Positions 4,546-44,429 of a stretch of DNA of 50,118 bases are shown here, in pieces. This stretch comes from a virus, in the IMG/VR virus record IMGVR_UViG_3300007352_000006; one strand, 5' to 3'. The stretch's first letter is position 1. Each line of letters starts with the position of its first letter. The notes beneath the pieces are model-generated. The model searched no databases, was not told where the DNA came from, and saw only the letters and a program-made list of their open reading frames with translations. The position numbers were made by a program, and so were the translations under genes.

Positions 4546-4781
4546 TCCTCTGCGGCTGCTCGGATGCGCTCTTTCATTTGTTCAAATGCTGCTTTTTCGC
4601 CGGCCGCAAAATTGGTGGTTGTAGTCATTTTTGTTTCAGCAAAAAGCGCCCCGATATGGCATTCTTCGGCCATTCTCTTCGCAAACTCCCATACCGCTGC
4701 GCGCTCGCGTTCCTTAACCTGTTTATCATTCCAAAACACGTTGCCGCATACTGGATTCCCCTCATGTATGCCATCGCTCAT
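4533..4781 (-). CDS. hypothetical protein, 82 aa
   Basis: Internal ATG 4781 forms an ATGA overlap with the stop of 4778..5098. Confidence 0.5.
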   Translation of the reverse strand: MSDGIHEGNPVCGNVFWNDKQVKERERAAVWEFAKRMAEECHIGALFAETKMTTTTNFAAGEKAAFEQMKERIRAAAEEWGK

Positions 4782-5098
4782 TTCTTCTCTCCGTCCAGTG
4801 CGCGCAGGGCGCTGAACAAATTGGCCCAATCATCATATTCGAGCCTTTTGTTGCTGGCCGCTTGCCCCATACGTCGTGCCGCCTTGGTCACCGCCTGTTC
4901 CAGCTTCACCCGCTCGGCGACATCGGCGGGGGCGAGGGCGGACTGTATCGCATCTAGCAAATTTACATATGAATTGTTAGCCTGTTTCAATATCTCATTC
5001 TTCCGCCGCACCAGTTCACGCAGCGCGGCGTTCTCGGCTTCAAGCTCTGCAACATATTTGTGCGATACAGAATCCATCGCCAATGTTTCGTCGGTCAT
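4778..5098 (-). CDS. hypothetical coiled-coil protein, 106 aa
   Basis: Heptad-rich AELEAENAALRELVRRKNEIL. Confidence 0.55.
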   Translation of the reverse strand: MTDETLAMDSVSHKYVAELEAENAALRELVRRKNEILKQANNSYVNLLDAIQSALAPADVAERVKLEQAVTKAARRMGQAASNKRLEYDDWANLFSALRALDGEKK

Positions 5099-5111
5099 TC
5101 CATTTCCCCTT

Positions 5112-5408
5112 TCAGCGGTTCACACAATCCGATTTGCCCGAAGGCAGCCAAGCGCACAGCCTGGACAGCCCCGGGTTTCGTTCGAACAGGGCGCGGTCGG
5201 CCTCGCTCAAACCCGATTCTGTCAGATGCGAGTGATGGAATTCGTACCCGGCATGTGGTACCTTAAAGGCTGCCGCAAGCATGTTGGGTACATGGACCCG
5301 ATGGCCGTAACCTTGAACGATTTCAGAGACATACCCGTTAGGATGCGTGATCACCGCACATTCATGGGGGGCACAGGCCAGCAGGGCGGCCAGCAGGGCG
5401 GCGGTCAT
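5112..5408 (-). CDS. putative lipoprotein, 98 aa
   Basis: N-terminus MTAALLAALLAC resembles a signal peptide with lipobox-like LLAC. Confidence 0.45.
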   Translation of the reverse strand: MTAALLAALLACAPHECAVITHPNGYVSEIVQGYGHRVHVPNMLAAAFKVPHAGYEFHHSHLTESGLSEADRALFERNPGLSRLCAWLPSGKSDCVNR

Positions 5409-5411
5409 GGC

Positions 5412-5780
5412 TCACTCCCTCTGGTCCGGTGGCGCTGGCCGCTTCGGCGTTCCCCTGCAAAGCTGCATCCATTTGTCCATCGGGTTGCCCTTCGCAGACG
5501 CAAAAACGTTGATCTCGGATATTCCGCACCGGCCGATAACCAAGGCGTGGCCCTCAGGGTATTCCAAGAACGGCTCGCGGCCGTTCGCTTCGCACCAATC
5601 ACGGTATGTGCGGGAGACGTGGCCGAAATCGTAGCTCTCGCGAATCGTCTTGTTCTCGCGCGCCAGCGTAGTTCGGATGCACTCTTGCTCCGCCTTGGTC
5701 AATTCCCGATAGTAGGGGCCGAATGTCAGGCCGCCGATTCGATAGGTATATTCGGTCGAGAAGCCAGAACGGTGTTTCAT
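5412..5780 (-). CDS. hypothetical protein, 122 aa
   Basis: Start preceded by the shared GGGGAGAGTGAGCT junction motif. Confidence 0.55.
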   Translation of the reverse strand: MKHRSGFSTEYTYRIGGLTFGPYYRELTKAEQECIRTTLARENKTIRESYDFGHVSRTYRDWCEANGREPFLEYPEGHALVIGRCGISEINVFASAKGNPMDKWMQLCRGTPKRPAPPDQRE

Positions 5781-5783
5781 AGC

Positions 5784-5949
5784 TCACTCTCCCCGTGCCG
5801 GATGAGTCCACGCCAATCCGAGCTTGCGTGCGCAATCAGGCCCAATCGGGTGCGCCCCGCAATCGCCAGAATCGGGCGTATAGTTGATTTCATCGGCCGG
5901 ATGCAATACGTAGGCGCCGCGCGTTGAAGTCAAGGAATTTTGTCCGCAT
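5784..5949 (-). pseudogene. Internally deleted, frameshifted paralogue of 7818..8075
   Basis: Same MRTKFLDFNAR start; 92 nt missing at GCGGC microhomology; 57-nt identical block 5813-5869 = 7847-7903. Confidence 0.55.
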
Positions 5950-6402: not shown

Positions 6403-6809
6403 GGCTTTGCTGCCGCGTGCTTTTCCCACGCACGATCAAGCAGGGCTTTGTCTTCTGGCGTTAAAGGCTCATCGCGTTCGGCCAAGTCCGAATCTTGTGC
6501 ACGTATTTCGGACAACTCGGCCCGAAGCCGCTGATTGTCCTCACGCACGGCCTCCAAGAGATTGCGAAGCTGGATGGTATCCTCAGCACGGCGCGCGTAA
6601 ATCAGTACCTGGTTAGCTAGGGCGCTGTTTGCCGATTCCAGCTTTTGAACCCTGGCGAGAGCTTTTTCGAGCGCATCGCGGGTGCCTTCCAGCATCTCAG
6701 CAAGGCTGTCATTGTTCGGGATAATCATAGGACACCTTTCATGATCGCAGGCAAATCCAAGCACCTGCATGTTTGTCGCACCGCAGTCTGAGCAATAGCG
6801 TCTCATCAT
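6399..6809 (-). CDS. 136-aa passenger protein inside the IS (Cys cluster plus coiled coil)
   Basis: CSDCG..CDHERC then heptad repeats; ATGATGA overlap with the transposase stop. Confidence 0.55.
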   Translation of the reverse strand: MMRRYCSDCGATNMQVLGFACDHERCPMIIPNNDSLAEMLEGTRDALEKALARVQKLESANSALANQVLIYARRAEDTIQLRNLLEAVREDNQRLRAELSEIRAQDSDLAERDEPLTPEDKALLDRAWEKHAAAKP

Positions 6810-7723
6810 TGGATCAGTGCCTTGTAGGTCAGGCGCTTGCCCTTCGTGCCGCTCACAAAGCTTTCCAGCCGCTCCATGGTGTGACGCTTCACGTTGCCGT
6901 CATTCAGACGGAAGGCAAATTCGTCAACGTAGCGGCCAAGGTGCTTTTTGCTGGCGTGGTGATAGACGCCAATCAGGCCGCGCTTCATGACCGCGAACAC
7001 GCTTTCAACGCCGTTGGTGGTCACGCTATCGCGGACGTATTCGCCTTCGCTGTGGTTGACAGTTTCGTGGTTGAAGAACAGCCCGCCAAGGCCACGGTAA
7101 ACGCCAGCTTCATCGGTGTGCAGCGTGGAACCGGCGGCGACGTGTTGGTGAATTTTGGTGTGCAGGGTCGCCATGTCGGCATCTTCAACCGCCATGGCTT
7201 TCATCTTGCCGCCGCGCTCGCGCATGGCGACAACGGCAGTCTTGCCGACCGTCCCGCGACCGGCTTTGAGCTTCTTGGACTCGTGCTTGTTCTTTTCGAT
7301 GCCGCCGACATAGGTTTCGTCGATTTCGACGATGCCTTGCAGTTTGGTCAGGTCGTCGCCGCAGGCTTCGCGAAGGCGATGCAGGACGAACCAAGCCGAC
7401 TTTTGCGTAATCCCGATTTCCTTCGCCAATTGCAGGCTGGAAATGCCCTTGCGGGCCGTGACCAGCAGATACATCGCGTAAATCCACTTGTGCAGCGGGA
7501 CATGGCTGCGCTCGAAAATGGTTCCCGTCCGCACCGTAAAATCCTCTTTGCACTGGTTGCAGCGGAAGTAGCCGCCCGCCCGCGCCGTGATCCGCTCGCC
7601 AAGGCCACAGACCGGGCACTTGGGGCCTTCCGGCCACAGACGCCCCTCCAAATAGACCCGCGCCGTCTCTTGATCCGGGAACATCGCGAACAACTCAAAG
7701 GTGGAAATCGTGGACTTACTCAT
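6806..7723 (-). CDS. IS1595-family (ISXO2-like DDE) transposase, 305 aa
   Basis: N-terminal Zn-ribbon CPVCG..CNQC, HKWIYAMYLL, DETYVGG motifs typical of the family. Confidence 0.9.
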   Translation of the reverse strand: MSKSTISTFELFAMFPDQETARVYLEGRLWPEGPKCPVCGLGERITARAGGYFRCNQCKEDFTVRTGTIFERSHVPLHKWIYAMYLLVTARKGISSLQLAKEIGITQKSAWFVLHRLREACGDDLTKLQGIVEIDETYVGGIEKNKHESKKLKAGRGTVGKTAVVAMRERGGKMKAMAVEDADMATLHTKIHQHVAAGSTLHTDEAGVYRGLGGLFFNHETVNHSEGEYVRDSVTTNGVESVFAVMKRGLIGVYHHASKKHLGRYVDEFAFRLNDGNVKRHTMERLESFVSGTKGKRLTYKALIQ

Positions 7724-10521: not shown

Positions 10522-10683
10522 GTGAAGCCCTGCAAGCACAAATACGACCGAAAACTCCTCAGGGAACACGAGTATATGTGGGATAATTTCAGTGATCCAT
10601 CAAAGTACATCCCTGGAATGTTGTATTACAGGCCGTGTCGGCTATGTGGAGACCGGAAGCTGGTCAAGTGGGTTGCTGATTGA
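10522..10683 (+). CDS. mini zinc-ribbon-like protein, 53 aa
   Basis: GTG-start ORF below cutoff; CKHKY ... CRLCGDRK; stop overlaps the terL start. Confidence 0.25.
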   Translation: MKPCKHKYDRKLLREHEYMWDNFSDPSKYIPGMLYYRPCRLCGDRKLVKWVAD

Positions 10684-12107
10684 TTGTTCTCGATTACACC
10701 CCGCAACCAAGACAGAAACTGCTCCATGAAACTCCGGCGACGTTCATACTCTACGGCGGTGCTGCCGGGGGGGCGAAAAGCCACGGACTGCGCTGGGATT
10801 TGTACGGTTGGTGTCTGACAGTTCCAGGTATCGACTGCTTCCTTTTCCGCAAAACACTTCCTGAGCTTGAGGCGAATCACATCCGCAAGATGCGTGCGGA
10901 GATTCCCGGCTCCATTGCCACCTACAACGAGTCCCGCAAGAGACTAGAATTCCTGAACGGTTCCGGTCTGAATATGTGTTTCTGCGAAACCGACGATGAT
11001 GTCGTGAAGTACCAGGGCTCGGAAATGCATGTCTTCGCTTTTGACGAGGCTGCTCTTGCGAAACCCGATCACCTGGCCTTCCTGCTGACCCGTAATCGAC
11101 TCGGGGGATTCCAGGAGCGAATCCCGCCGCAATATCGCCATCTTCTGCCGAGGGCCGTGTTTTCCTCCAACCCCGGAGGCCCGGCGCACAACTTCCTGAA
11201 AGAGAACTTCATCGACCCCGCTCCGGCGGAGACGGTCTTTCTCCATCCCCTGTACAGGCGGAAGACCATCTTCATCCCGTCCTCGATGAAGGACAACAAG
11301 TACCTCGATACCGGGTATGAAAACCAGTTCGTCGGGCTGCCCGAGGAACGGAGAAAAGCTCTCGTCGAGGGAGATTGGGATGCCATTGTCGGACAGGCTC
11401 TTCCGATAGACCGTTCCGTCCACATGATTGGTCCATTCAAACCTCCACCCCATTGGACGAAGTTCATGGCGATGGATTGGGGTACGGCGAGGCCGTTTTC
11501 CGTTGGCTGGTACTGCGTCTCGGAGGGGACCGAGGTCGAGTGGAAGATCGGGAATTGGGGGAAGAGATATCTCCCCGCGGGGTCAGTGATTCGGTATCGG
11601 GAATGGTATGGCTGGAACGGCAAAGCCAACCACGGTTGTCGGATGGAATCCCCGGCAGTAGCGAAGAAGATTCTCGAAATCGAAAACGGGGAAAACATCG
11701 ATTACCGTATTGCTGATGGTGCGATGTGGGCCAAAACAGACGGCCCCTCTCCGGCTGAGAGAATGCTTGAAGCTACAGATGGCAGACTGGCCCTTCGCTC
11801 CACAGGGGCCAAGGACCGCAAGATGATGTACGCCGAATGCATTGCGAGACTCATGGGGCAGGACGGCCATCCGATGTTCTTTGCGACATCTGATTGTAAG
11901 CATTTCTGGAGAACGGTTCCAGTATTGATTACAGACGAAATAGACCCCGACAAAGGGCCGGATACAAAGATGGAGGACCACGTATACGATGAATGGTCCT
12001 ATGCTATGCGTTCTCGTCCCTTCATTCAGACGAAGGACGACAGATGGTATCAAGAGAACTACGAAGATTTGAAAAATCTTAAGCCGATTGATCCGTATGC
12101 AACATAA
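10680..12107 (+). CDS. terL: terminase large subunit
   Basis: Walker A GGAAGGAKSH, VFAFDEA Walker B-like motif, nuclease-like C-terminal half; TTG start; 475 aa. Confidence 0.85.
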   Translation: MIVLDYTPQPRQKLLHETPATFILYGGAAGGAKSHGLRWDLYGWCLTVPGIDCFLFRKTLPELEANHIRKMRAEIPGSIATYNESRKRLEFLNGSGLNMCFCETDDDVVKYQGSEMHVFAFDEAALAKPDHLAFLLTRNRLGGFQERIPPQYRHLLPRAVFSSNPGGPAHNFLKENFIDPAPAETVFLHPLYRRKTIFIPSSMKDNKYLDTGYENQFVGLPEERRKALVEGDWDAIVGQALPIDRSVHMIGPFKPPPHWTKFMAMDWGTARPFSVGWYCVSEGTEVEWKIGNWGKRYLPAGSVIRYREWYGWNGKANHGCRMESPAVAKKILEIENGENIDYRIADGAMWAKTDGPSPAERMLEATDGRLALRSTGAKDRKMMYAECIARLMGQDGHPMFFATSDCKHFWRTVPVLITDEIDPDKGPDTKMEDHVYDEWSYAMRSRPFIQTKDDRWYQENYEDLKNLKPIDPYAT

Positions 12108-12849
12108 TCCTACCGTCTATATTACCGAACATATCAATTCCAAGGTAGTTGGTTCGGCCTTTGCGGAAGGCTGCGGGGGCCGGATAGCCTCACCCGTTCG
12201 GCTTCTTGATGGGCCGGCAGTCGTATATGGAATCCTTAGAGGATGCGGCGACATCATACGCCAAGCCGAGTGGGTGGGGCGGGATTTCTTCCATATTGAC
12301 CTCGGGTATTTCAAACGGGGTCACTATGAGGGTTACTACAGAGTTACGCAGAACGCCTTCCAAGCCGATCTTGACGATGTTCTCGTAAGACCAGACAGGT
12401 GGGAAACCCTAAAAATCCCCCTTCGTCCATGGAAAAGGACGGGACGGAACGTAGTCGTATGTCCGATGACGGGAGCCGTGGGCGATTTTCTCAACATCAA
12501 TACGAGAAAATGGATCGAAACCGTTACCGACGAATTGAGGAAGTATACCGAACGCCCAATAATCGTGAAGCCTAAGGGCGATGTCGATATATCCGAGATG
12601 TTTGAGGACGCGTGGTGTGTTGTCACACACTCATCGAATGCTGCCGTGGATGCGGTTTTAGCCGGAGTCCCCGTCGTGACCCTGGGGGATTCGGCCTGCG
12701 AACAGATTTCTTGGGGTTTAAGTGATATCGAATCTCCATTCTGGCCTGAACGGGACTGGTGGTGCCATAAACTCGCCTATCATCAGTTTACTCTTGATGA
12801 ATTCCGTAACGGCGTGGCATGGAAAATCCTTCAGGAACACGATGTTTGA
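12097..12849 (+). CDS. putative GT-B-like glycosyltransferase
   Basis: VVTHSSNAAVDAVLAGVPVVTLGDS resembles the donor-binding half of GT-B enzymes; ATG 12097 preferred to TTG 12088. Confidence 0.4.
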   Translation: MQHNPTVYITEHINSKVVGSAFAEGCGGRIASPVRLLDGPAVVYGILRGCGDIIRQAEWVGRDFFHIDLGYFKRGHYEGYYRVTQNAFQADLDDVLVRPDRWETLKIPLRPWKRTGRNVVVCPMTGAVGDFLNINTRKWIETVTDELRKYTERPIIVKPKGDVDISEMFEDAWCVVTHSSNAAVDAVLAGVPVVTLGDSACEQISWGLSDIESPFWPERDWWCHKLAYHQFTLDEFRNGVAWKILQEHDV

Positions 12850-13441
12850 AGTCATCACCATCGAAGGAATCCAGTATCCGAATCACTCTGATGCTCAGAG
12901 ATGGTATGACCAGCTTCAATATCTGAAAATCGGCCTTTCATACGTCAAGAATTTCGACCTCGCCATTGATGGTGGAGCGTTTGTCGGGGCATGGACGCGG
13001 GAAATGGCGAAAAGATTCAAGAAGGTTGTTGCTTTCGAGCCCGACCCGCAGAATTTCGAGCTTCTGAAGCGAAATACGAAGGAATTCGATAACGTTTTTC
13101 TTCACAACGCCGCTTTGGGCGACCAGAACACGAAAATCGGCCTTGACGGCAAGGTTCCGTGTTCAAGATACATCATTCCGGAGGGCGAAATCCAAATGCT
13201 AAGACTGGATTCGCTCAATCTTGCCCCAACATTCGTGAAATTCGACCTTGAGGGCACTGAAATCTTCGCTCTCCGTGGAGCAGAACAGACCCTGAAGGCA
13301 TATAAGCCAGTTGTTCAGATGGAATACAAGGACAGGGTGTGGGATCGATACAATTCCGGTGATCCGGAAAGGCTTTTGAAATCATGGGGCTGGAAATTCC
13401 AGGAAAAGGCCCACGTTGACCGTATCTACACATGGACCTGA
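12842..13441 (+). CDS. FkbM-family SAM-dependent methyltransferase
   Basis: AIDGGAFVGAWT, VVAFEPDPQNFELLKRN, VKFDLEGTEIFALRG motifs. Confidence 0.7.
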   Translation: MFEVITIEGIQYPNHSDAQRWYDQLQYLKIGLSYVKNFDLAIDGGAFVGAWTREMAKRFKKVVAFEPDPQNFELLKRNTKEFDNVFLHNAALGDQNTKIGLDGKVPCSRYIIPEGEIQMLRLDSLNLAPTFVKFDLEGTEIFALRGAEQTLKAYKPVVQMEYKDRVWDRYNSGDPERLLKSWGWKFQEKAHVDRIYTWT

Positions 13442-13941
13442 TCGAACAGTACCGGATGATGCATGAAGCCGGGAAGTTTCCCGGTTTTTCCTGTCTCCCT
13501 CATCTGAATGAGATCGGTCTTGCGATCATGCGATCGAGATCGAAGACGCTTCTGGACTATGGCTCAGGTGACGGGCAGCAGTACTCTCTTGCCAAGCTCG
13601 ACAAACGCTGGGGTGTTGAGGTCACCTGTTACGATCCAGCGGTGAAGAAATTCGAGACGAAACCATTTCGGAAATTCGATTTCGTTCTCTGCTGTGACGT
13701 TCTTGAACACATTCCGGAAGAGGGCATTGGCCCGGTTCTCGGGGATGTCTTCTGGCACGCCGGGAAATATGTCTTTTTGACCATATCGACCAGGGAAGCG
13801 AGGAAAACGCTTCCCGATGGAAGAAACTGCCATTTGACGGTGAAGCCGATTGAATGGTGGCTACAGCAGATCGGCCCAAGACAGGTGCCCTACGATGTCG
13901 TTTTCGATGAAAAGAATTCTATGTCTTCTCGGGCTTCATGA
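13432..13941 (+). CDS. class I SAM-dependent methyltransferase
   Basis: LLDYGSGDGQ glycine-rich SAM motif and CCDVLEHIPEE. Confidence 0.6.
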   Translation: MDLIEQYRMMHEAGKFPGFSCLPHLNEIGLAIMRSRSKTLLDYGSGDGQQYSLAKLDKRWGVEVTCYDPAVKKFETKPFRKFDFVLCCDVLEHIPEEGIGPVLGDVFWHAGKYVFLTISTREARKTLPDGRNCHLTVKPIEWWLQQIGPRQVPYDVVFDEKNSMSSRAS

Positions 13942-14056
13942 CGACCAGGTTACGTGGTTCGGCCGGAGAAAGGTCGGACAAAACGAATACGTCCTCTCGG
14001 TTCATGTCTGCCGTGTGTGCGGAAGAAGAAAGAATGTAACGAATGATCACCGATAA
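13907..14056 (+). CDS. mini zinc-ribbon-like protein, 49 aa
   Basis: MKRILCLLGLHDD ... CRVCGRRK; paralogous pattern to 10522..10683 and 15155..15343. Confidence 0.35.
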   Translation: MKRILCLLGLHDDQVTWFGRRKVGQNEYVLSVHVCRVCGRRKNVTNDHR

Positions 14057-14987
14057 GATTGACAACATCACCAGTATCGGCCCGGAATTCCGGGCTTCTT
14101 TTTTGCCCGCCCCGAAAAGCGTCAAGATCGAACTGACGGGACGCTGTAACTACCGATGTGGATTCTGCGCTCTTCGCACCCGTACCGTACAGCCGAAATC
14201 AGACATGGATTGGGATTTGTACACCCGTCTGGTTCTGGAAATGCGACAGGCGGATGTCGAGGAACTCGGGATGTTCTATCTCGGCGAATCCTTTCTTTTC
14301 GATTGGCTCCCAGAGGCAATCCGGTTCGCCAAGTCGGCGGGATTCCCATATGTCTTCCTGACCACGAACGGTTCCTGTGCGACCCCGGAAATGGTCGAAG
14401 CCTGCATGGCCGCCGGGCTGGACTCCCTGAAATTCTCAATGAACAACGCCGATGAAGCACAATTCACGAAAGTCGCCGGGGTGAAGGCGAAACTGTGGGC
14501 CGATGCGATAGCAAATCTTCATGCAGCCCGTAAAATACGCGATCAGGGCCCATACGATTGCGGGTTATACGCTTCTTCGATCCGGTACGACGGCGAACAG
14601 CAGGAGAAAATGGAGGCGTTCCTTGAACGGGACGTAATCCCTTATGTGGATGAGCATTACTGGCTACCCCTTTATTCTATGGGCTCTCTGGCTGCACGGC
14701 GTGAGAAAGAGCTTGGATACCGTCCGATTGCCGGAAACCAGGGGAGACTCGGCAATCTCAGGGAGCCGCTGCCGTGCTGGTCCGCCTTTACCGAGGGACA
14801 TATCACTGCCTCGGGAAAACTCAGCGCGTGTTGTTTCGATGCCGACGAACGTTGGGCGATGGCTGATCTCACGGAAGTTGGGTTCATGGACGGATGGAAT
14901 TCCGAATCCTTCCAACGATTACGGGCCGCTCACTTGAAAAAGGATGTCTTCGGAACGCCGTGTGAGGAATGCGTCGCATATGCCTGA
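14043..14987 (+). CDS. radical SAM enzyme with SPASM/twitch-like C-terminal Cys cluster
   Basis: CNYRCGFC (CX3CX2C) near the N-terminus; C-terminal CWSAF..GKLSACC and PCEEC. Confidence 0.8.
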   Translation: MITDKIDNITSIGPEFRASFLPAPKSVKIELTGRCNYRCGFCALRTRTVQPKSDMDWDLYTRLVLEMRQADVEELGMFYLGESFLFDWLPEAIRFAKSAGFPYVFLTTNGSCATPEMVEACMAAGLDSLKFSMNNADEAQFTKVAGVKAKLWADAIANLHAARKIRDQGPYDCGLYASSIRYDGEQQEKMEAFLERDVIPYVDEHYWLPLYSMGSLAARREKELGYRPIAGNQGRLGNLREPLPCWSAFTEGHITASGKLSACCFDADERWAMADLTEVGFMDGWNSESFQRLRAAHLKKDVFGTPCEECVAYA

Positions 14988-15162
14988 TTGGGGGCGCATC
15001 GAAAATCAATACGGCGTTGATTTCGTGGCCTATCTGAAGAGTATTGGTTATCCGGATGATCCTGTAACCAAAGAACTGTCCGAGAATGACGGATATCCAG
15101 GAATTGAAATAATCCACAGTGCGTGGAAGGCATGGAATGAAGGATTTCGTTGCTATGCCTAG
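14980..15162 (+). CDS. hypothetical protein, 60 aa
   Basis: ATG 14980 overlaps the rSAM stop by 8 nt. Confidence 0.4.
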   Translation: MPDWGRIENQYGVDFVAYLKSIGYPDDPVTKELSENDGYPGIEIIHSAWKAWNEGFRCYA

Positions 15163-15343
15163 CGAACAAGCAATAACCGGGATGATTTTATTGTTATGCC
15201 TTTATCTCCCGCTTCTAATCTGGCTCGCTTTCGTAATCATAAAAGATAATGGGCTCATATGTCGTCTGATTGATCATAAGACGGTGTATTTCTGTTCTGG
15301 TTGGGTTCGATGCGACAGATGTTTTAAATGGTTTAATCAATGA
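15155..15343 (+). CDS. small membrane plus zinc-ribbon-like protein, 62 aa
   Basis: TM helix ITGMILLLCLYLPLLIWLAFVII then ICRLIDHK ... CDRC. Confidence 0.4.
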   Translation: MPSEQAITGMILLLCLYLPLLIWLAFVIIKDNGLICRLIDHKTVYFCSGWVRCDRCFKWFNQ

Positions 15344-16047
15344 AAGTCTTTGTTGGCTATGACGCCCGCGAACCGGAAGCTTACAAGGTCTGCGTTCGCT
15401 CGCTCCTGAAACATTCATCTATTGATCTTGATATTATACCACTTCTGGACGCCGACCTAAGGGCGAAGAATTTATACCGGCGACAATACAAGCAACTCGC
15501 CGTGGGCCCGAGATATGATTTTCTTGATGGCAAGCCGTTTTCTACGGATTTTGCGTTCACCCGTTTCCTTGTTCCATCCCTGTGCGATTTTGGACCGGCG
15601 GTTTTCTGCGATGCGGATTTCCTGTGGCGCGGCGATATCAATAGCCTCTTGGATCATTTCGACAATTCCAAGGCTGTGCTGGTTGTCCAACACGACCACA
15701 AGCCGGACGAATCCGAGAAGATGGATCACATGATCCAGGAATCGTACCCGAGAAAGAACTGGTCAAGCCTGATCCTGTGGAACTGCTCGCACTATGCTTG
15801 CCGGGCATTGACGCCAGAGTATGTGAATACAAAACCAGGCTCGGACCTTCATGGGTTCAAATGGGTTGACGACGATCATATCGGGTCGCTCCCCGTTGAG
15901 TGGAATTATCTTGTCGGCTGGAACACGAAGGAACAATGCGAACATCCTTCCGCCGTTCATTTCACGAACGGTATCCCGACGATGCCGGGTTGGTGGAATC
16001 AGGAATATGCCTCGGAATGGCTGAGCACATTGAGAGAAATCCAGTGA
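15340..16047 (+). CDS. GT8-like (GT-A fold) glycosyltransferase
   Basis: FTRFLVPSL, VFCDADFLWRGDINSL (DxD), HFTNG..PGWW resemble family 8 glycosyltransferases. Confidence 0.65.
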   Translation: MKVFVGYDAREPEAYKVCVRSLLKHSSIDLDIIPLLDADLRAKNLYRRQYKQLAVGPRYDFLDGKPFSTDFAFTRFLVPSLCDFGPAVFCDADFLWRGDINSLLDHFDNSKAVLVVQHDHKPDESEKMDHMIQESYPRKNWSSLILWNCSHYACRALTPEYVNTKPGSDLHGFKWVDDDHIGSLPVEWNYLVGWNTKEQCEHPSAVHFTNGIPTMPGWWNQEYASEWLSTLREIQ

Positions 16048-16772
16048 GACGCTGCATAACCAGTTTCTCACAAGCAGGATACGCAGAATATGGCAAGAGA
16101 TTTCTCCAGTCCTATGTGGGGCACTGGCCTATTCCAATTACGGTATTCTATGAGCACAAGAAGCCGGATTTCGAGCATGAAAAAGTCTCCTATATCGACT
16201 TGATGGCTGATGAAGACCTGATCTTCTTTCTCATAGATCATGAATGGGAATCCGCAGCGAACGGAATTCAATGGGACGATTCCGGTAAACCCTTTGCTAA
16301 CTATCGCTATCAGGCGTGCAAGTTCGCCAGAAAAATCTACGCGCTTACATCTCCGCGCATGGAAGATTCCGATTGGCTGATCTGGCTGGACGCCGATATC
16401 GAAACCCACAAGGACATCGACGACAGATTCTTTGCAGAAACCTGCAAGAAAGAATTCGTCGCCTCTTATCTCGGGCGGGCGGATTGGCACCATTCCGAAT
16501 GTGGGTTCGTCGCCTACAATATAAACAAGCGTGGCGACGATTTCCTGGCCCGCATGAGGGATATCTACAATTCCGGGGAACTGTTCGATCTGGACGAATG
16601 GCATGATTCGTTCGTTTTCGATCATGTCAGGAAGAAATGCGAGGAAAGCGGATTGAAATTCCTCAACCTGTCCGCCGGGGTGCCGGGGAATCATGTCTGG
16701 CCGAATACGATCCTCGGCGAATACATGAGTCATAACAAAGGCCCAGAACTGAAGGAACGAGCCTATAAATGA
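16044..16772 (+). CDS. putative GT-A-like glycosyltransferase (DxD)
   Basis: GTG start in a GTGA overlap; ITSFSQAGYAEYGKRFL and WLIWLDADIE motifs. Confidence 0.45.
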   Translation: MRRCITSFSQAGYAEYGKRFLQSYVGHWPIPITVFYEHKKPDFEHEKVSYIDLMADEDLIFFLIDHEWESAANGIQWDDSGKPFANYRYQACKFARKIYALTSPRMEDSDWLIWLDADIETHKDIDDRFFAETCKKEFVASYLGRADWHHSECGFVAYNINKRGDDFLARMRDIYNSGELFDLDEWHDSFVFDHVRKKCEESGLKFLNLSAGVPGNHVWPNTILGEYMSHNKGPELKERAYK

Positions 16773-18160
16773 GCCGTTATATCCAACTTCATGCATTGAT
16801 CGACCATCACAAGCCGCAGACGTTCGTTGAGATCGGTACTTGGAACGGGATGCGAGCACTTGAGCTTTCCAAGTCCCTTCTCAAGCACCATCAACAGGTC
16901 ATGTATTATGGGTTCGACCTGTTCGAAGACGCTACGGAAGAAACCGATAAGGCAGAGTTGAACGTCAAGGCCCATTCCAGCTTGGAAGCGGTAACTGATC
17001 TGCTGTCCCAAGTAGGGCCGGGATTCAAATTCACCCTGATCAAAGGTAATACCCGCGAGACGCTTCCGAAATGGAAGTCGCAGCTTTCGCAGGCTGACAT
17101 GGTGTTCATCGACGGCGGGCACTCAGTCGAAACCATCGCGTCGGACTATGAGAATGTGAGGGGGGCGAAGGTCGTCATTTTCGACGACTATTATGTCCCT
17201 GATGACAAGGGGAGATGTCAGGACACGGAAAAACACGGCTGCAACAAGCTCCTTGAAAACGTACCTCATACGATCCTGTCCGCGAAAGACCCGGTGAAGG
17301 GGGGCGGATTGGTGCAAATGGCCGTCAGTCCTCCGGAGGCGGCAAAGATACAGCTACAGCGGAACGTAGAGGTCAAGACCAAGAACTGCGTCCCGCATCC
17401 GGAGATACAGGCAAACATCCGATATTCGGTCGGATTGAAACCACCGTTGATGCCGAAGATGCCGGCCCACAAACACCTTGCCTTGATGTGCTCGGGCGGC
17501 CCTTCGCTGGAATGGTATCTCTACGAACTGGCGGAAAAACAGAAGGCCGGCGGGAAACTCGTATGTGTCAAGCACGCCCACGATCTTCTGCTGAAAAACA
17601 ACATCGTGCCGGATTTCTGCATCCTTCTCGACCCGAGGGGACATGTGCAGGACTTCATTGATAACCCGCATCCCGAGGTTCATTACCTCGTGGCGTCGAT
17701 GTGCCATCCGTCCACGTTCGACAAGCTGATCGAGAAAAAGGCGAAGCTGTGGACGTATCATGCTGCAGTAGGCGCCGATGAACAAAATCTGCTCAAGGAA
17801 ATCGGTGGACAGGGGCTTCTTATCGGTGGCGGGTCTTCCTCTTGCACAAGAGGGATTTCCGTCATGTGGTCCATCGGATTCCGCAGATTCGAATTGTTTG
17901 GGTATGATTCGTCGTATGTCGAACCGCCAAATTTGTGGAATATGGAACCGGAAGAGCGCAACAAGTTTTGCAAGATCGCCATCAATGGGCGGGAATTTTA
18001 TACGGACTTCGAGAAGCTCGCGGAAGTCCAGGATTACGAAAAACTCAGGAAACACGACATGGGCGGGGATTTCACCGTCCACGGCGGCGGTATGATCCCC
18101 CATGTCGAAAGGATTTTGACACAGAATGTCAATGATACCTTCAGACGCATCTTCGGCTGA
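16769..18160 (+). CDS. fusion of class I methyltransferase and Maf/DUF115 (MptE-like) domain
   Basis: N-terminal FVEIGTWNG ... VFIDGGHS; C-terminal LALMCSGGPSL ... LIGGGSS resembles motility-accessory-factor glycosyltransferases. Confidence 0.55.
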   Translation: MSRYIQLHALIDHHKPQTFVEIGTWNGMRALELSKSLLKHHQQVMYYGFDLFEDATEETDKAELNVKAHSSLEAVTDLLSQVGPGFKFTLIKGNTRETLPKWKSQLSQADMVFIDGGHSVETIASDYENVRGAKVVIFDDYYVPDDKGRCQDTEKHGCNKLLENVPHTILSAKDPVKGGGLVQMAVSPPEAAKIQLQRNVEVKTKNCVPHPEIQANIRYSVGLKPPLMPKMPAHKHLALMCSGGPSLEWYLYELAEKQKAGGKLVCVKHAHDLLLKNNIVPDFCILLDPRGHVQDFIDNPHPEVHYLVASMCHPSTFDKLIEKKAKLWTYHAAVGADEQNLLKEIGGQGLLIGGGSSSCTRGISVMWSIGFRRFELFGYDSSYVEPPNLWNMEPEERNKFCKIAINGREFYTDFEKLAEVQDYEKLRKHDMGGDFTVHGGGMIPHVERILTQNVNDTFRRIFG

Positions 18161-20117
18161 GCTTGCGAACCTCGCCCAGAGTCTGCCCGAAGATGAACTG
18201 AAGAAAATTGCCGATCAGTGCATCCGTGAATTCGATGACGACGACGCAACCCGGAAGCCGTGGTTGCAGATGCACGCCGAGTGGATGAAGCTCTTTTATC
18301 AGGACGATAAGCCGAAAAATCCCCCGTGGCAGGGCGCTTCCAGTGAATCTCTACCCTTGCTTGCCGAGGCTTGTGTCCAGTTTCAGGCCCGCGCTTATCG
18401 CAACCTGTTCCCGAACGAACACGTCATCAAGGCGATGCCGGAGGGAGAGGTTACGAATGACAAAAAAGAACGCGCCAACAGGGTCGGGAAACACATAAGC
18501 TGGCAGCTTATGGTCCGCGACAAGCGGTACAAGTCCGACAAGGACGCCCTCCTGCTTTCCGTTCCCCTACATGGATCGTTTTTCACGAAGACCTATTACG
18601 ATCCGTTTTTGGGGAGAAATCGTACCGATAACGTCAGGGCAGAGGATTTGGTTGTCCCCTACGGGGTCGGGCCGAGGGAACTGGAGGATATCGAACGTAA
18701 AACGCACATCATTTGGATGTCCGTCAACCAGACCCGGTCATTGAAAGCATCTGGATATTTTATTGAGGAAGGGAAACCCTATACGCTCGGTCAGAAAACG
18801 GAAACCCAGAAAGCAACCGAGAAACAGGAAGGATTGCAGGAATCCATCCTCCAGCAAGAACACCTGCCCTGCAAAATTCTTGAACAGCACCGCCTTCTCG
18901 ACTTGGATGGGGACGGTCTGGCGGAGCCCTATATCGTAACGCTCGATTACGCCTCAAGGAAGATACTGAGAATCGCGATCCGGTATGAAACGGACGAAAT
19001 GGGGAATCCTATCGGGGACAAGCGACCGATTGAATTCTTCGTCCATTATCCATTTATGCCGAATCCGGATGGGTTCTACGGGCTGGGATATGGGCATCTG
19101 CTTGGTAACATAAATATTGCCCTCAACAAGATGCTTCGTCAGACGGTTGATGCGGCCACGCTCGCGAATGTTGGGAATCATTCAGGATTCGTGAACCAGG
19201 CTGTCGGGGCCGGCAAGGGCGATATCGAATTCCATCTCGGGAAGTTCAAGACCATCCGGGGGACATCGGAAGACCTTTCCCGCTCGATATATCAGTTCAA
19301 ATTCCCTGGTCCTAATGCTGCGCTGATCGAATTGATAGCCCTTCTGGACGGGAAGGGCCGTGGGCTGGCGTCAGTGCCAGAAGCCCTGACCGGACAGATG
19401 GACAAGGTTGTCCAGCCCACGACTGTTCTTGCTCTTATCGAGCAGGGTTTGCAGGTTTTCTCGACGGTCTATGAGCGGATCATCGAATCGTGGAAGCGCG
19501 AACTTGCCATTCACTATCGTTTGAACCGGAAGTACATGCCGAATTCGGAGTACTTCACGATCCAGGATATGGCGCAGGGACTCCAGAATCTGGCCATCGG
19601 AAAAGACGACTACAAGGATGACTTCCTCGTTACGCCTATCGTCGATCCGAAGATGGCGACCGAACAGCAGAGGCTTGCTAAGGCACAGGCCGAATGGCAG
19701 TTCGTTTCTACGAATCCCATTATCATGCAGAATCCAATTGCATTGTACCGGGCGTCGAAGCGTTATCTTGAAGCCATCGGCTCGACGGACATAGATGAGA
19801 TTCTTCCCCCGATGGTCGCTGACACGCCGCCGAGGGTGGACGATCAGGGGATAGAGAACATGGGGGCGCTCCAACCGATTCCCATGATGTCCGATGTCTA
19901 TATGGACCAGAACCACCTTGAGCATATCAAGAAGATCGACGAATTCCTGCAATCCCCGTATGCCGCACAGATCACGCCAATGGGCCTTCAGATTCTCATG
20001 GGGCATCGGCAGAAGCACGCCGCGTTCCTGTACGGCATGACGGAAACAAATCTGCCTTCCGTCATTGACGATAAGGCTCCGACTATCCCAAGTGCCCAGA
20101 TGGCTCCGCTCCAATGA
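18126..20117 (+). CDS. portal protein
   Basis: 663 aa, first large gene of the head module after terL; size and context; not verified by motif. Confidence 0.6.
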   Translation: MSMIPSDASSAELANLAQSLPEDELKKIADQCIREFDDDDATRKPWLQMHAEWMKLFYQDDKPKNPPWQGASSESLPLLAEACVQFQARAYRNLFPNEHVIKAMPEGEVTNDKKERANRVGKHISWQLMVRDKRYKSDKDALLLSVPLHGSFFTKTYYDPFLGRNRTDNVRAEDLVVPYGVGPRELEDIERKTHIIWMSVNQTRSLKASGYFIEEGKPYTLGQKTETQKATEKQEGLQESILQQEHLPCKILEQHRLLDLDGDGLAEPYIVTLDYASRKILRIAIRYETDEMGNPIGDKRPIEFFVHYPFMPNPDGFYGLGYGHLLGNINIALNKMLRQTVDAATLANVGNHSGFVNQAVGAGKGDIEFHLGKFKTIRGTSEDLSRSIYQFKFPGPNAALIELIALLDGKGRGLASVPEALTGQMDKVVQPTTVLALIEQGLQVFSTVYERIIESWKRELAIHYRLNRKYMPNSEYFTIQDMAQGLQNLAIGKDDYKDDFLVTPIVDPKMATEQQRLAKAQAEWQFVSTNPIIMQNPIALYRASKRYLEAIGSTDIDEILPPMVADTPPRVDDQGIENMGALQPIPMMSDVYMDQNHLEHIKKIDEFLQSPYAAQITPMGLQILMGHRQKHAAFLYGMTETNLPSVIDDKAPTIPSAQMAPLQ

Positions 20118-21447: not shown

Positions 21448-21735
21448 ATGGCAATCGACCCTCTATTTGCGCGCGTACTCCTTCAGCGGGAAAAGCTGAA
21501 GACTTCTATTATCATTCCGGACATAGCGGCGAAGCGAAACGCCCCCTGTATCGGGACGGTCCTGAAGACCGGAGATACCTGTGAAGACAGGATCAAGGGA
21601 CTTGTTGGAAAGAAAGTCCTTTTCGGCCAGCACGCCGGGACATGGATCAATGAGGACGGAACGGCCGTCGCCGATCCGCTGAAGGCCGAATTTTTCATGT
21701 GCATGGAAGAAGACCTACTTGGAGTCATCGAATGA
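21448..21735 (+). CDS. GroES/Cpn10-like co-chaperonin
   Basis: PLFARVLLQREKLKTSIIIPD..IGTVLKTGD..VGKKVLFGQHAG..EEDLLGVIE aligns by eye with GroES. Confidence 0.55.
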   Translation: MAIDPLFARVLLQREKLKTSIIIPDIAAKRNAPCIGTVLKTGDTCEDRIKGLVGKKVLFGQHAGTWINEDGTAVADPLKAEFFMCMEEDLLGVIE

Positions 21736-23528: not shown

Positions 23529-24419
23529 ATGACTGTATCCACTGGCAATTTTGCCGAACTGCTCTGGCCCGGCATCAAGGACCTGTTCGGTCAGGCTTAC
23601 GAGCGTTGGGAGACGAAGTACACGCAGTTCTGCGACATCATGGAATCGGACAAGGCGTTCGAGAAGCTCCAGGGTGTCACCGGCCTGCCGCTGGCTTCGA
23701 TCAAGACCCAGGGCAACCAGATTCCGTTTGTCGATCCCATGCAGGGGTTGCAGAAGGAATTCGTGAACGTCACCTACGCCATCGGTTCCGGTGTTACCCG
23801 CGAAATGTACGAGGACGATCAGTACAACTACATCAACTCGATCCCCTCGATGATCGCGGAGAGCGTCCGGCAGACCGAAGAGACTGTGGCGACGAATGTG
23901 CTGAACAACGGCTTTTCCACCGCTACGGCGGCGGATGGCCTCAGCGTGTTCAACGCAAGCCATGTTCTTGTCGCAGGCGGGACGTATCGCAATCAGCCTT
24001 CGACGGCCGCCGATCTCACGCAGACCTCGCTTGAGCAGGCGTTCATCGACATCTCGGACTACACCGACGACCAAGGCCTGAAGATCAACATCATGCCCAA
24101 GGTTCTCATCGTTCCGACCGCGTTGCAGTTCGTCGCGGAGAAAATCCTCAATACTGAGTATGAGGTCGATACCGCGAACAATACGGTCAATCCGATGAAG
24201 GGCCGGTTGCCGCTCGTTGTCACCCCGTTCCTGACCGATACCGACGCATGGTTCATCAAGACCTCGTCCCGCAACGGGATGGTCTTCTTCAACCGGCGCT
24301 CGGCCGATCTGGAGCGCGACAACGACTTCAACACCCAGAACCTCTTGTTCGCCGGCACCCGCCGTTTCTCGGTTGGCGTCGCCGACGCGCATGGTCTTTA
24401 CGGTTCGCAGGGCGCGTAA
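23529..24419 (+). CDS. major capsid protein
   Basis: 296 aa, strong AAGGAGGG RBS, followed by a strong terminator; composition typical of HK97-fold MCPs. Confidence 0.7.
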   Translation: MTVSTGNFAELLWPGIKDLFGQAYERWETKYTQFCDIMESDKAFEKLQGVTGLPLASIKTQGNQIPFVDPMQGLQKEFVNVTYAIGSGVTREMYEDDQYNYINSIPSMIAESVRQTEETVATNVLNNGFSTATAADGLSVFNASHVLVAGGTYRNQPSTAADLTQTSLEQAFIDISDYTDDQGLKINIMPKVLIVPTALQFVAEKILNTEYEVDTANNTVNPMKGRLPLVVTPFLTDTDAWFIKTSSRNGMVFFNRRSADLERDNDFNTQNLLFAGTRRFSVGVADAHGLYGSQGA

Positions 24420-24430
24420 GAGCACTCACC

Positions 24431-24460
24431 GGGGGAGGCTTCGGCCTCCCCCTTCTTCTC
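24431..24460 (+). terminator. rho-independent terminator after capsid gene
   Basis: GGGGGAGGC-TTCG-GCCTCCCCC stem-loop followed by TTCTTCTC. Confidence 0.7.
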
Positions 24461-24515: not shown

Positions 24516-24962
24516 ATGACCACTTTCCGTGGCCCGCTCTACGTGCGGGCAAAGGCAGATAACGGTATCCCCGCGCAGAGCGACAAGGGCACCGTCATTC
24601 TCGAACAGATGGTGTCGCTGGCCGCAGATACCTCGGGGGCATCCTCGATTGTCCTGCCGGCGAATTCCCGCATCGTGGATATGAATGTCGTCGTCATCAC
24701 CCCGGCGACGCTCAATACCCAGGGCATTCTTGTCCGCGTCGGTACCACGAGCGATGCGATCAAGTTCGCCAACATCAAGACATCGGCCTCAAATATCTAT
24801 CGCTGCGGTTACGCCCCTAACCTCACGGCCGGTTCCGTGGCGGCATGGCACAACATCGGGACGGGCTCTCAGCGGCTTTATATCGATGTAACCGCCGCCG
24901 CCTCGGCTGCCGAAACCGCCGAATTCACCGGCCTGCTCTCCATCCAGTACGTATTGAGGTAA
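24516..24962 (+). CDS. virion-module hypothetical protein, 148 aa
   Basis: AAGGAG RBS; co-oriented structural block. Confidence 0.55.
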   Translation: MTTFRGPLYVRAKADNGIPAQSDKGTVILEQMVSLAADTSGASSIVLPANSRIVDMNVVVITPATLNTQGILVRVGTTSDAIKFANIKTSASNIYRCGYAPNLTAGSVAAWHNIGTGSQRLYIDVTAAASAAETAEFTGLLSIQYVLR

Positions 24963-24965
24963 GTC

Positions 24966-25298
24966 ATGGCCCGCACTACGACAGTCAGTGCGAAGGGCAG
25001 CGCCGGAACTCAATCTGCCTGGATTCCGCTTGACCAGCATATCTCCCCGTTCAACGTGGGATTTGGCGTTGTCAAGTCGGGAACCGGGGACATCACCTAT
25101 TCGGTCCAGCATACCTTCAACGACGTGCTGGCCGGAGAAACGGCGACGGCCTTCGATCACTCTTCCGTTTCCGGGGCTACGGGCTCCGTGGACGGAAACT
25201 ACGCCTATCCGGTCAAGGCCGTCCGCCTCAACATCACGGCGGCTTCCGGGGCGTCGTCCCTTCAGTTCTACGTGATCCAGGCCGGGATCACGCAATGA
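24966..25298 (+). CDS. virion-module hypothetical protein, 110 aa
   Basis: ORF in structural block. Confidence 0.55.
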   Translation: MARTTTVSAKGSAGTQSAWIPLDQHISPFNVGFGVVKSGTGDITYSVQHTFNDVLAGETATAFDHSSVSGATGSVDGNYAYPVKAVRLNITAASGASSLQFYVIQAGITQ

Positions 25299-25537
25299 GT
25301 ATCCTGGATTGGTTCCGGCCGAAACCAGAGGTCGAGGTTCCGAAGGAGATTCCTCGGATCGGAGTCAAGGGCAAGGAGATTTCGTTCGGGTCCAAGCCGA
25401 AGAAGAAACGGGCCGAAATGCGTTCCGCGCGAATCCGGGTCAAACTGTCGGAACTGGAAAGCGAGGGACGGTCGGATTCTCCCGAAGCCGAGAAACTCAG
25501 GAAGGAACTCAAGTTCCTGTCCGCATTCACGGGGTAA
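25295..25537 (+). CDS. hypothetical basic protein, 80 aa
   Basis: ATGA overlap start. Confidence 0.45.
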   Translation: MSILDWFRPKPEVEVPKEIPRIGVKGKEISFGSKPKKKRAEMRSARIRVKLSELESEGRSDSPEAEKLRKELKFLSAFTG

Positions 25538-25540
25538 GAC

Positions 25541-25984
25541 ATGGCTTGGGTAGTCTATCCGAACTGGATCAAACTCCAGCACAACGGCTCGGCCGTTGAT
25601 CTGGACCTTGCCAGCAATCTGGCGATGTTCTTCCTGACATCCGCCTACACACCGAACAACGGTGACGGGACTTGGGTCAATGTCACGGCGGCTATGGTGG
25701 CCTCGGGAGCTTCTTATGCCCCTAACGTCGGGAAATCCATTACTTCGCCGACGATCACGCTTGCCACCACGCAGGGCGTTACGACTTTTGACTGCGCTGA
25801 CGTGACTGTAACGGCGGATGCCGGTGGATTCACGAACGCCCGATACGCCATTATTGGAGTCTCTGCCGCAACCACGGCCAATCGACGATTGATCTGCTAT
25901 GCGGATTTGGGTGCCGACAAGACCATCGTGGGCGGTGATCTTGTCATTCAGATGGCAGCCTCCGGCGTGTTCGAGGTCAGTTGA
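25541..25984 (+). CDS. virion-module hypothetical protein, 147 aa
   Basis: ORF in structural block. Confidence 0.55.
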   Translation: MAWVVYPNWIKLQHNGSAVDLDLASNLAMFFLTSAYTPNNGDGTWVNVTAAMVASGASYAPNVGKSITSPTITLATTQGVTTFDCADVTVTADAGGFTNARYAIIGVSAATTANRRLICYADLGADKTIVGGDLVIQMAASGVFEVS

Positions 25985-26487: not shown

Positions 26488-26488
26488 T

Positions 26489-44275: not shown

Positions 44276-44315
44276 GCCTTCTCAAGCTCCTCGATCAGCG
44301 CGTCGCGCATGGCGC

Positions 44316-44429
44316 TCATCGTCCGTTCATTCTCTTATTGATCTGCCGCAACTCACGGATTCGCTCGTCGCACAGGATCTGCAGCCGGTCGTACACCTTG
44401 CCCGGCGGGCACGCGGCCGTGTCGGTCAT
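44316..44429 (-). CDS. 37-aa ORF
   Basis: Below cutoff as a separate gene; ATGA overlap with 44426..44932. Confidence 0.3.
   Translation of the reverse strand: MTDTAACPPGKVYDRLQILCDERIRELRQINKRMNGR

Follow-up and report, generated by a model that had tools for sequence, protein, structure and literature searches.

A widespread phage gene module of predicted glycosyltransferases and a methyltransferase fused to a Maf-like domain, a candidate for virion glycosylation

Two classes of soluble cytoplasmic glycosyltransferases (GTs) that modify flagellin are known, Maf and FlmG, and both are thought to use CMP-activated nonulosonic acids (bioRxiv 10.1101/2022.03.25.485807). Here we describe a gene cassette of an uncultivated phage (IMG/VR record IMGVR_UViG_3300007352_000006; its whole 50,118-bp stretch of DNA is called the window below) that lies between the genes for the large terminase (terL) and the portal protein and ends with o10, a predicted O-methyltransferase fused to a Maf-like domain. 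Like Maf of Magnetospirillum magneticum (PDB entry 5MU5), with which it shares the central nucleotide-sugar-binding domain, o10 would be soluble and cytoplasmic. Unlike Maf, it carries an O-methyltransferase where Maf has its N- and C-terminal domains and is encoded by a phage, and the window contains neither flagellin genes nor genes for the biosynthesis of CMP-pseudaminic or CMP-legionaminic acid (CMP-Pse/Leg), so that the genomic linkage typical of Maf is missing. FlmG, which is composed of tetratricopeptide repeat (TPR) and GT-B domains, offers a second parallel: a TPR protein with an uncharacterised C-terminal domain likewise accompanies homologs of the cassette proteins o8 and o9 (the latter fused to a methyltransferase) in a bacterial flagellar island, and a homolog of this TPR protein is encoded next to a GT8-like gene in podovirus MW202512. 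The window itself has no TPR protein, and o1, the first protein of the cassette, shows no relation detectable by hhalign to the TPR proteins of the flagellar island or of MW202512.

To our knowledge, enzymatic glycosylation of phage particles has been demonstrated only for a few mycobacteriophages, in which it blunts recognition by antibodies; Freeman and colleagues are said to have described it in 2023 for phages of the Che8, Corndog and Myrna type. Here as there, phage GTs, some together with a methyltransferase, are expressed with virion genes, and in mycobacteriophages they are thought or shown to decorate the capsid or tail. The mycobacteriophage enzymes belong to unrelated families, with neither a Maf-like domain nor the o8-o9-o10 core, and work in actinobacterial hosts, whereas the present system is known from its genes alone. 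Protein A064R of chlorovirus PBCV-1 contains two GT domains and a methyltransferase, and the capsid protein of this virus carries methylated glycans. This cytoplasmic, virus-encoded machinery likewise fuses GT and sugar O-methyltransferase domains; it belongs to a eukaryotic giant virus, makes N-linked glycans and lacks a Maf-like domain, and the likeness is one of function that does not imply homology. Virion glycosylation of mycobacteriophages is also mentioned in PMC11256854, and we found no account in the literature on DUF115, MptE-like or Maf proteins in phages of such a phage enzyme or of this core. Other phage GTs act on DNA: GT-A and GT-B enzymes associated with 5mYOX or ThyS are in some cases encoded close to the genes for terminase or replication and accompanied by methyltransferases or epimerases (bioRxiv 10.1101/2023.12.21.572611). 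The cassette differs from these and from the alpha- and beta-GTs of T4 by the absence of precursor-making enzymes and by the subclass of its GT-A proteins, and its Maf-like domain and flagellar homologs point to protein.

The space of about 6 kb between terL and portal is filled by ten co-oriented open reading frames (ORFs) on the plus strand, named o1 to o10 (Table 1). Neighbouring ORFs overlap by 4 to 44 nt, for example by 11 nt for TerL/o1, 8 nt for o1/o2, 10 nt for o2/o3, 14 nt for o4/o5 and 35 nt for o10/portal, and o3/o4 overlap by 92 nt if o4 starts at its first TTG. Short stop/start overlaps are present at o7/o8 (ATGA), o8/o9 (GTGA) and o9/o10 (ATGA), the start of o9 being taken at GTG 16044 so that it overlaps the o8 stop, and there are no intergenic gaps. 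A consensus scan of the cassette identified no internal promoter or terminator above chance, and the sole strong terminator of the region (24431-24452, plus strand) follows the capsid gene. The overlaps and the lack of internal promoters and terminators therefore place the cassette within the packaging and morphogenesis transcription unit, which suggests that it is translationally coupled to terL and portal and expressed late. At 51.1%, its G+C content is lower than that of the genome (55.6%).

Table 1. Cassette ORFs, flanking genes and other features of the window
Feature	Coordinates	Strand	Description
terL (large terminase)	10680..12107	+	tblastn to annotated phage terminases, 33% identity, 1e-55
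o1	12097..12849	+	250 aa; DUF6716-like, possibly a glycosyltransferase with a region like the C-terminal half of GT-B enzymes
o2	12842..13441	+	FkbM-family methyltransferase; accessory
o3	13432..13941	+	class I S-adenosylmethionine (SAM) methyltransferase (Methyltransf_23); accessory
o4	13850..14056	+	small Cys-containing ORF; orphan, only phrog_15735 at 2.5e-4
o5	14043..14987	+	radical-SAM enzyme with one C-terminal auxiliary-cluster domain (SPASM/twitch); accessory
o6	14944..15162	+	small orphan ORF; no family match
o7	15119..15343	+	small orphan ORF; hydrophobic helix, C-terminal CxxC, 41% GC
o8	15340..16047	+	GT8-like retaining GT-A glycosyltransferase, DxD at D91-A-D93; core member 1
o9	16044..16772	+	second retaining GT-A glycosyltransferase, WLDAD motif; core member 2
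o10	16769..18160	+	463 aa; methyltransferase fused to Maf/DUF115 domain; core member 3, cassette anchor
portal	18126..20117	+	phrog_1216 1.6e-13; SU10_portal in relatives
Major capsid protein	23529..24419		encoded ahead of the two small proteins
Two small proteins after the capsid gene	24516..25298	+	148 aa and 110 aa; 19% and 23% Ser+Thr; candidate acceptors
RusA, DUF1376, small-terminase-like helix-turn-helix (HTH) protein			encoded in the genome
Head-closure-like domain			present in the genome
HNH endonuclease, DUF5131, YqaJ exonuclease, ERF recombinase			encoded in the genome

An initial annotation, made from the sequence alone, had described these ORFs as a ten-gene cassette in the late virion operon. 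The ten ORFs are indeed co-oriented and overlapping, and in this phage they do belong to the packaging and morphogenesis unit; in the marine branch of relatives described below, the core instead ends the replication module. Three of the ten, o4, o6 and o7, are orphans for which no homologs were found in about 200 related loci that we fetched, even at E=10 beyond chance-level matches, and they may not be genes. We therefore count seven supported enzyme genes rather than ten, with o1 being supported only weakly.

The protein anchoring the cassette, o10, has two predicted parts. Residues 1-190 correspond to a cation-type O-methyltransferase (PF13578, 2.3e-12) that resembles the sugar O-methyltransferase MeT1 and YrrM/TrmR (a marine homolog weakly matches TylF), and residues 235-390 together with a C-terminal subdomain constitute a Maf/DUF115 (MptE-like) GT-like domain. 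PF01973 matches residues 237-384 at 7.5e-16 (58.8 bits versus a cut-off of 34.6) and is present in every o10 homolog listed, and FlagModPseD matches o10 at 1.6e-6. When the AlphaFold2 (AF2) model of o10 (pLDDT 91.7) was compared with the PDB using Foldseek, the best match was the flagellin glycosyltransferase Maf (5MU5, 4.3e-8), followed by the archaeal MptE HPPK, YrrM/TrmR, MeT1 and the sialyltransferase ST8SiaIII, in line with the original assignment of a methyltransferase fused to a Maf/DUF115 domain. The o10 profile aligns with 5MU5 at 2.3e-5 over residues ~236-392 only, which correspond to residues 274-428 of the 666 residues of 5MU5; SGGPS at positions 242-246 of o10 is aligned to GSGPS of 5MU5, and G244 is invariant. 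The tripartite architecture of Maf is not seen in o10, whose N-terminal 190 residues form the methyltransferase. Because it lacks the flanking Maf domains and the linkage to flagellin, we classify o10, by sequence and predicted fold, as a member of the DUF115/MptE-like superfamily and not as a Maf in the strict sense.

The two genes preceding o10 encode predicted retaining GT-A enzymes. The o8 protein matches phrog_28018 at 7e-64, and D91 and D93 of its DxD motif are invariant, which supports its earlier description as GT8-like with a DAD motif; PF01501 falls just below its cut-off (2e-4, 21.3 bits versus 24.3), and the o8 family profile matches WbbM (GT8) at 5e-4 and GlyE at 0.03. Among curated families o9 has no Pfam match. 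Its AF2 model (pLDDT 97.2, pTM 0.92) returned 272 PDB matches at E<=1e-3 in Foldseek, the top ones being LARGE1, alpha-1,3-galactosyltransferase (a3GalT), glycogenin and XXYLT1 at 2e-8 to 1e-6, all at one with the proposal that the WLDAD protein is a GT-A enzyme, and W114, D116 and D118 (WxDxD) are invariant.

Relatives of o10 are numerous. At least 471 were retrieved in a word-indexed protein search and 378 in IMG/VR by an alignment-based scan, and an exhaustive profile search collected 981 clusters (50% identity) at E<=1e-30; an exact-sequence look-up and a single-sequence IMG/VR scan with o10 gave no match. In 50,697 GenBank phage records, tblastn with o10 or with a marine 812-aa fusion protein detected no protein joining the methyltransferase to the Maf-like domain, and megablast of 10680-20117 found no close DNA relative in the same records. 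Around o10 relatives, the order of the o8, o9 and o10 homologs is kept in ~76 of 83 loci fetched (individual loci are given L numbers below). All 18 loci of the window's clade have o8 and o10, 15 have o1, 8 each have o2 and o3, and 3 have o5; o8 is also present in 59 of 66 marine loci. In many lineages, among them the marine branch, o9, the methyltransferase and the Maf-like domain form a single protein of 720-840 aa, such as the 812-aa example, and bacteria encode a single o9-methyltransferase protein of 467-470 aa without the Maf-like domain. A further variant, a 1055-aa o9-methyltransferase-methyltransferase-FkbM protein, is encoded by the cyanobacterium Dapis sp. (L092 9002-12169). The core is thus predicted to consist of a GT8-like enzyme, a GT-A enzyme, an O-methyltransferase and a Maf-like domain, and its activities, being fused, would therefore act on one substrate by the gene-fusion argument.

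The gene for the 1055-aa Dapis fusion adjoins those for a TPR-GT61 protein, a TPR protein and a B12-binding radical-SAM enzyme, and this cellular counterpart is open to study in a cultured organism. Some relatives add an epimerase/dehydratase, SIS, SDR and thiamine pyrophosphate (TPP)-dependent enzymes, or KdsA and KdsB to the core. Pelagibacter phage Mosig has o8, o9 and two copies of o1. Homologs of o9, o8 and o1 also occur, together with many sugar-related genes, in L126 (a 78.5-kb JGI contig) and L088 (329 kb); these genes include KdsA, KdsB, mannose-1-P enzymes, a sulfotransferase-methyltransferase fusion, a carbamoyltransferase and a radical-SAM/SPASM gene, and by their predicted content the two contigs are viral glycan toolkits of much greater range, with the same enzymes at their centre.

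We used the portal gene as an anchor and found 28 IMG/VR relatives with the cassette, directly upstream of portal in nearly all of them. The initial annotation had proposed a comparison with relatives that keep terL beside portal, and two such genomes exist: in L147 and L148 terL abuts portal (47 and 101 nt between alignments) and the cassette is absent. These genomes share 41% identity with the window in portal, 45-53% in terL and 41-42% in capsid, and the gene order identifies the cassette between terL and portal as an insertion. Related modules are found 3' of the capsid gene in podovirus MW202512 and just upstream of terL in MW202713 and L155. In the marine branch, which is nearest to HTVC103P-type pelagiphages (44% DNA-polymerase identity), the core follows the genes for DNA polymerase, a Cas4-type exonuclease, ribonucleotide reductase, ThyX and Hsp20 at the end of the replication module and precedes a methyltransferase and the holin. 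Given these differing placements across relatives, we conclude that the module is mobile. Together these data show that the cassette is real, conserved and widespread, with an enzymology clear enough to test.

The cellular homologs bear on the nature of the substrate. On a 998-kb Steroidobacteraceae contig (L096), the genes for FlgH-FlgI-FlgJ-FlgK-FlgL are followed by those for a TPR protein, an o8 homolog, an o9-methyltransferase fusion, flagellin, FliD and sigma-54 activators; this flagellar cluster is the sole cellular locus with both GT-A homologs and a methyltransferase. The spot between flgL and fliC is the classical site of flagellin glycosylation islands. A 634-aa plus-strand ORF at this locus was discarded as a shadow ORF without a PDB match, the real gene being the minus-strand one for the TPR protein. 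The TPR protein has a homolog (9e-22) among the TPR proteins of phages: its gene in MW202512 lies two genes 3' of that for the capsid and is followed by genes for an endonuclease, an FkbM methyltransferase and a GT8-like enzyme. The homology of the TPR proteins thus indicates that both types of flagellin-style module have been acquired by phages, each along with the same GT8-like enzyme. The Maf-like fold, the flagellar cluster, with homologs lying between flgL and fliC beside a TPR protein, and the shared TPR protein favour a protein substrate over DNA or a peptide, as had been proposed at the outset.

Neighbouring genes also give hints about the donor. Homologs of o9 are encoded beside NeuB and a CMP-sugar synthetase (CMP-transferase) in one bacterium and next to KdsA and KdsB on a phage contig of 78 kb, and o10 resembles a sialyltransferase. 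A sugar of the 3-deoxy-D-manno-octulosonic acid (Kdo) or nonulosonic acid type is a plausible donor. The cassette had been described as self-contained; the window has no genes for donor-sugar synthesis, so that nucleotide sugars of the host are needed.

Taken together, we tentatively read the cassette as a late-expressed system that draws on the sugar nucleotides of the host to attach methylated O-glycans to virion proteins, an interpretation to which we give slightly less than even confidence. The module would represent phage-borne protein O-glycosylation of the flagellin-glycosylation type, transcribed late together with the terminase and portal genes, and its soluble enzymes would work in the cytoplasm of the host cell. 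The Maf-like domain of o10 would place the first sugar on Ser/Thr of a phage structural protein, the first donor probably being CMP-activated (of the Kdo or nonulosonic acid type), as for Maf and sialyltransferases. The enzymes o8, o9 and possibly o1 would then extend the glycan from host UDP-sugars, the methyltransferase domain of o10 and the FkbM and Methyltransf_23 enzymes would O-methylate its sugars, and the radical-SAM/twitch enzyme would tailor a sugar or sugar nucleotide. The donor sugars, the order of the steps, the acceptor and the benefit (shielding, stability or adsorption) are our proposals from the gene content.

The likeliest acceptors would be accessory proteins of the head, such as the pair of small proteins whose genes come next after that of the capsid. 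Of the cassette-bearing clade members with loci that extend beyond the capsid gene, nearly all encode a homolog of the 110-aa protein (24966-25298), L152 being the exception, and many encode one of the 148-aa protein (24516-24962) as well. Both genes are missing from L147 and L148, in which the capsid gene abuts a homolog of 27726-28112. Neither protein has a family or PDB match, and the small post-capsid proteins of the window showed no detectable relation to their counterparts in MW202512 or L199. This co-occurrence weakly points to the two proteins as acceptors, and we treat it as a lead, a hypothesis and not evidence. Fiber-like proteins and the LamG protein had been suggested as targets at first; no evidence links the cassette to them, and the weak co-occurrence directs attention to the small post-capsid proteins. 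The most specific version of our proposal, in which a phage-captured Maf-like O-glycosyltransferase, fused to an O-methyltransferase and often to a GT-A domain, decorates accessory capsid proteins with a methylated glycan in which Kdo or a nonulosonic acid may be present, is possible, and we hold it more doubtful than the general one.

Several observations speak against glycosylation of the virion by the cassette. The virion is deduced as the target from gene position only, and the acceptor is a candidate. The co-occurrence with the post-capsid genes depends on two negative genomes, which are also the most divergent ones. The larger marine branch has its core away from the virion genes, which limits the argument from a virion operon to the window's clade. 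A flagellar context is seen in only 1 of ~35 cellular loci, tblastn having detected no flagellar genes near cellular homologs other than that in L096. With 463 aa, against 632-666 aa for true Maf proteins, and without their N- and C-terminal domains, o10 does not allow acceptor recognition to be transferred from Maf, and MptE-like domains include a pterin pyrophosphokinase, found among the next-best Foldseek matches. Finally, GT8-type enzymes commonly act on lipopolysaccharide (LPS).

The main rival explanation, which we consider unlikely and yet well worth keeping in view, is that the cassette acts on a glycoconjugate or protein of the host, such as LPS or O-antigen, capsule, S-layer, or a pilus or flagellar protein, possibly masking receptors against the loss of progeny on debris, blocking superinfection or altering the cell surface. 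GT8 and FkbM enzymes are indeed typical of LPS and O-antigen clusters, with the o8 profile matching the O-antigen enzyme WbbM; the cellular homologs serve surface structures, both in the flagellar island and in a NeuB/CMP-transferase/pyruvyl-transferase cluster; and the marine-branch core is separated from the virion genes. However, all enzymes of the cassette are predicted to be soluble: none of the seven has a membrane-like segment, the sole such segment in the cassette being the o7 helix (KD19 2.94), and a membrane component of the Gtr or Wzy type is absent. Coupling to terL and portal would restrict production of the cassette proteins to late in the lytic cycle, and neither an integrase nor a lysogeny module was found among the ORFs scanned. 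Host flagellin in particular is unlikely to be the target in general: SAR11 bacteria, which are infected by some relatives or by phages that relatives resemble, have no flagella, and in hosts of this type it cannot be the acceptor.

We regard it as very improbable that the enzymes glycosylate and methylate phage DNA, the resulting hypermodified bases serving to escape restriction. Phage GT-A and GT-B enzymes acting on 5hmC or 5hmU are documented and can be encoded near terminase or replication genes (bioRxiv 10.1101/2023.12.21.572611), and the marine core adjoins DNA-metabolism genes that include a thymidylate synthase. This thymidylate synthase is, however, ThyX (PF02511, 2e-47) and not a ThyA-type hydroxymethylase, and the window ORFs scanned, from which some small ORFs were left out, encode no C5-cytosine methyltransferase, 5mYOX/TET enzyme, hydroxymethylase or DNA polymerase, in agreement with the earlier remark that DNA-base modification enzymes are missing. 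Moreover, o9 matches retaining enzymes of GT6/GT8 and not the JGT/TarP-like class of DNA GT-A enzymes (bioRxiv 10.1101/2023.12.21.572611), and a flagellar cluster is where cellular homologs are found. We rejected DNA modification as the principal interpretation for two reasons: the thymidylate synthase, ThyX, is no hydroxymethylase, and the ORFs scanned yielded neither a 5mYOX nor a C5-methyltransferase gene.

Around the core of the proposed virion-glycosylation system, the accessory genes differ in how firmly they can be assigned. The FkbM, class I methyltransferase and radical-SAM predictions all hold: o2 matches PF05050 (2e-10, 41.4 bits versus 22.7), TIGR01444 (66.2 bits versus 37.7) and phrog_8156 (5e-25), o3 matches PF13489 (2.4e-8) and phrog_24759 (1e-22) and has a homolog 3' of the core in the marine branch as well, and o5 matches PF04055 (1.8e-12, 48.2 bits versus 29.5) and PF13186 (5e-9, 36.7 bits versus 21.5). 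The first gene had been called GT-B-like, which our searches do not confirm. All Pfam matches of o1 (DUF6716, 19.4 bits versus 27; Epimerase_2; Capsule_synth) are sub-threshold and confined to its C-terminal ~75 residues, a search of the PDB with its family profile produced noise only, and 250 aa is short for a GT-B enzyme. Some o1 homologs do reach PF20471 (DUF6716), and o1 homologs adjoin those of o8 and o9 in phage Mosig, L088 and L090.

The radical-SAM enzyme o5 has the invariant cysteines C35, C39 and C42 (CxxxCxxC) and C245, C263, C264, C307 and C310; the five C-terminal ones would bind one auxiliary cluster in a twitch-like arrangement, and the full seven-Cys SPASM set is not reached. 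Homologs with 52-62% identity occur in five loci. Those in L005 and L016 are accompanied by an NAD-epimerase/dehydratase, and the gene for a 62%-identical enzyme, on a phage contig binned with Gallionella, lies beside genes for SIS, SDR and TPP-dependent enzymes (L100), a stand-alone methyltransferase and a GT8-like enzyme. From these sugar-enzyme neighbours we therefore infer that o5 is an optional accessory that tailors sugars and not a peptide maturase. The idea that o5 and the small ORFs form a maturation unit like those for ribosomally synthesised and post-translationally modified peptides (RiPPs), whose peptide the GTs and methyltransferases then decorate, is scarcely tenable: radical-SAM enzymes with SPASM domains are often peptide maturases, NCBIfam models for PqqE and other maturases match o5 weakly (far below their cut-offs) and three small ORFs flank its gene, but homologs of these ORFs are missing from all relatives, the five loci just mentioned among them, the neighbours there are sugar enzymes, only five C-terminal cysteines are conserved, twitch-like as in the carbohydrate-oxidising BtrN (a weak PDB match), and o5 occurs in just 3 of 18 clade members and hence outside the core.

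If glycosylation of the virion by the module is true, ~1000 lineages of uncultivated phages, among them relatives of SAR11 pelagiphages and podophage-like viruses of soil or bioreactors, would have an enzymatically made glycan coat, and virion glycosylation would be common among environmental phages and not a peculiarity of mycobacteriophages. The cassette would widen the phenomenon to a much larger and different set of phages, with enzymes of another kind, taken over from flagellin glycosylation. If marine and soil phages had such coats, their adsorption, the stability and aggregation of the particles, grazing and estimates of carbon flux would all be affected. The compact soluble three-domain enzyme (GT-A, O-methyltransferase and Maf-like) is directly testable in E. 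coli, would give a testable function to ~1000 protein clusters now labelled 'MptE-like' or 'methyltransferase' in databases, and is a possible source of tools for protein glycoengineering.

The ends of the 50,118-bp contig are an exact 84-bp direct repeat (1-84 and 50035-50118), and we therefore consider it a complete, circularly assembled phage genome of ~50,034 bp. All of its annotated regions are phage-like in character; the complete phage genome has been deposited in NCBI within a metagenome-assembled genome (MAG) named 'Myxococcales bacterium'. An ORF at 4578-5927 (plus strand) considered as a recombinase/helicase had no PDB match and is probably a shadow ORF. Between the portal and capsid genes, 21448-21735 (plus strand) encodes a 95-aa protein whose positional homologs (38-49% identity) have the Cpn10/GroES Pfam domain, and which is probably a phage co-chaperonin of the head module. 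The terminator hairpin at 24431-24452 consists of 9 pairs, 8 of them G-C, with a T-rich tail, and lies just 5' of a set of variable small genes (24516-27739).

The region 44000-47000 has a G+C content of 63-67%, against 55.6% for the genome, and holds 44929-45936 (minus strand); within it, the gene for a DUF5131 (Gp37/Gp68-type) protein (2e-75) adjoins those for the YqaJ exonuclease and the ERF recombinase. An IS1595-family transposase is encoded at 6806-7723 (minus strand), and the identical 305-aa protein is found on at least 22 other contigs (70 blocks in the index), which are different phage-like genomes from the same habitats and include L202-L206. The transposase gene is always followed by the same 109-aa and 45-aa ORFs, and the element looks like an insertion sequence that moves between unrelated phages. 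At the end of the structural and lysis region, 40014-41258 (plus strand) encodes a 414-aa protein with a class-3 lipase domain (3.6e-9), which is uncommon in phages and may act on the host envelope.

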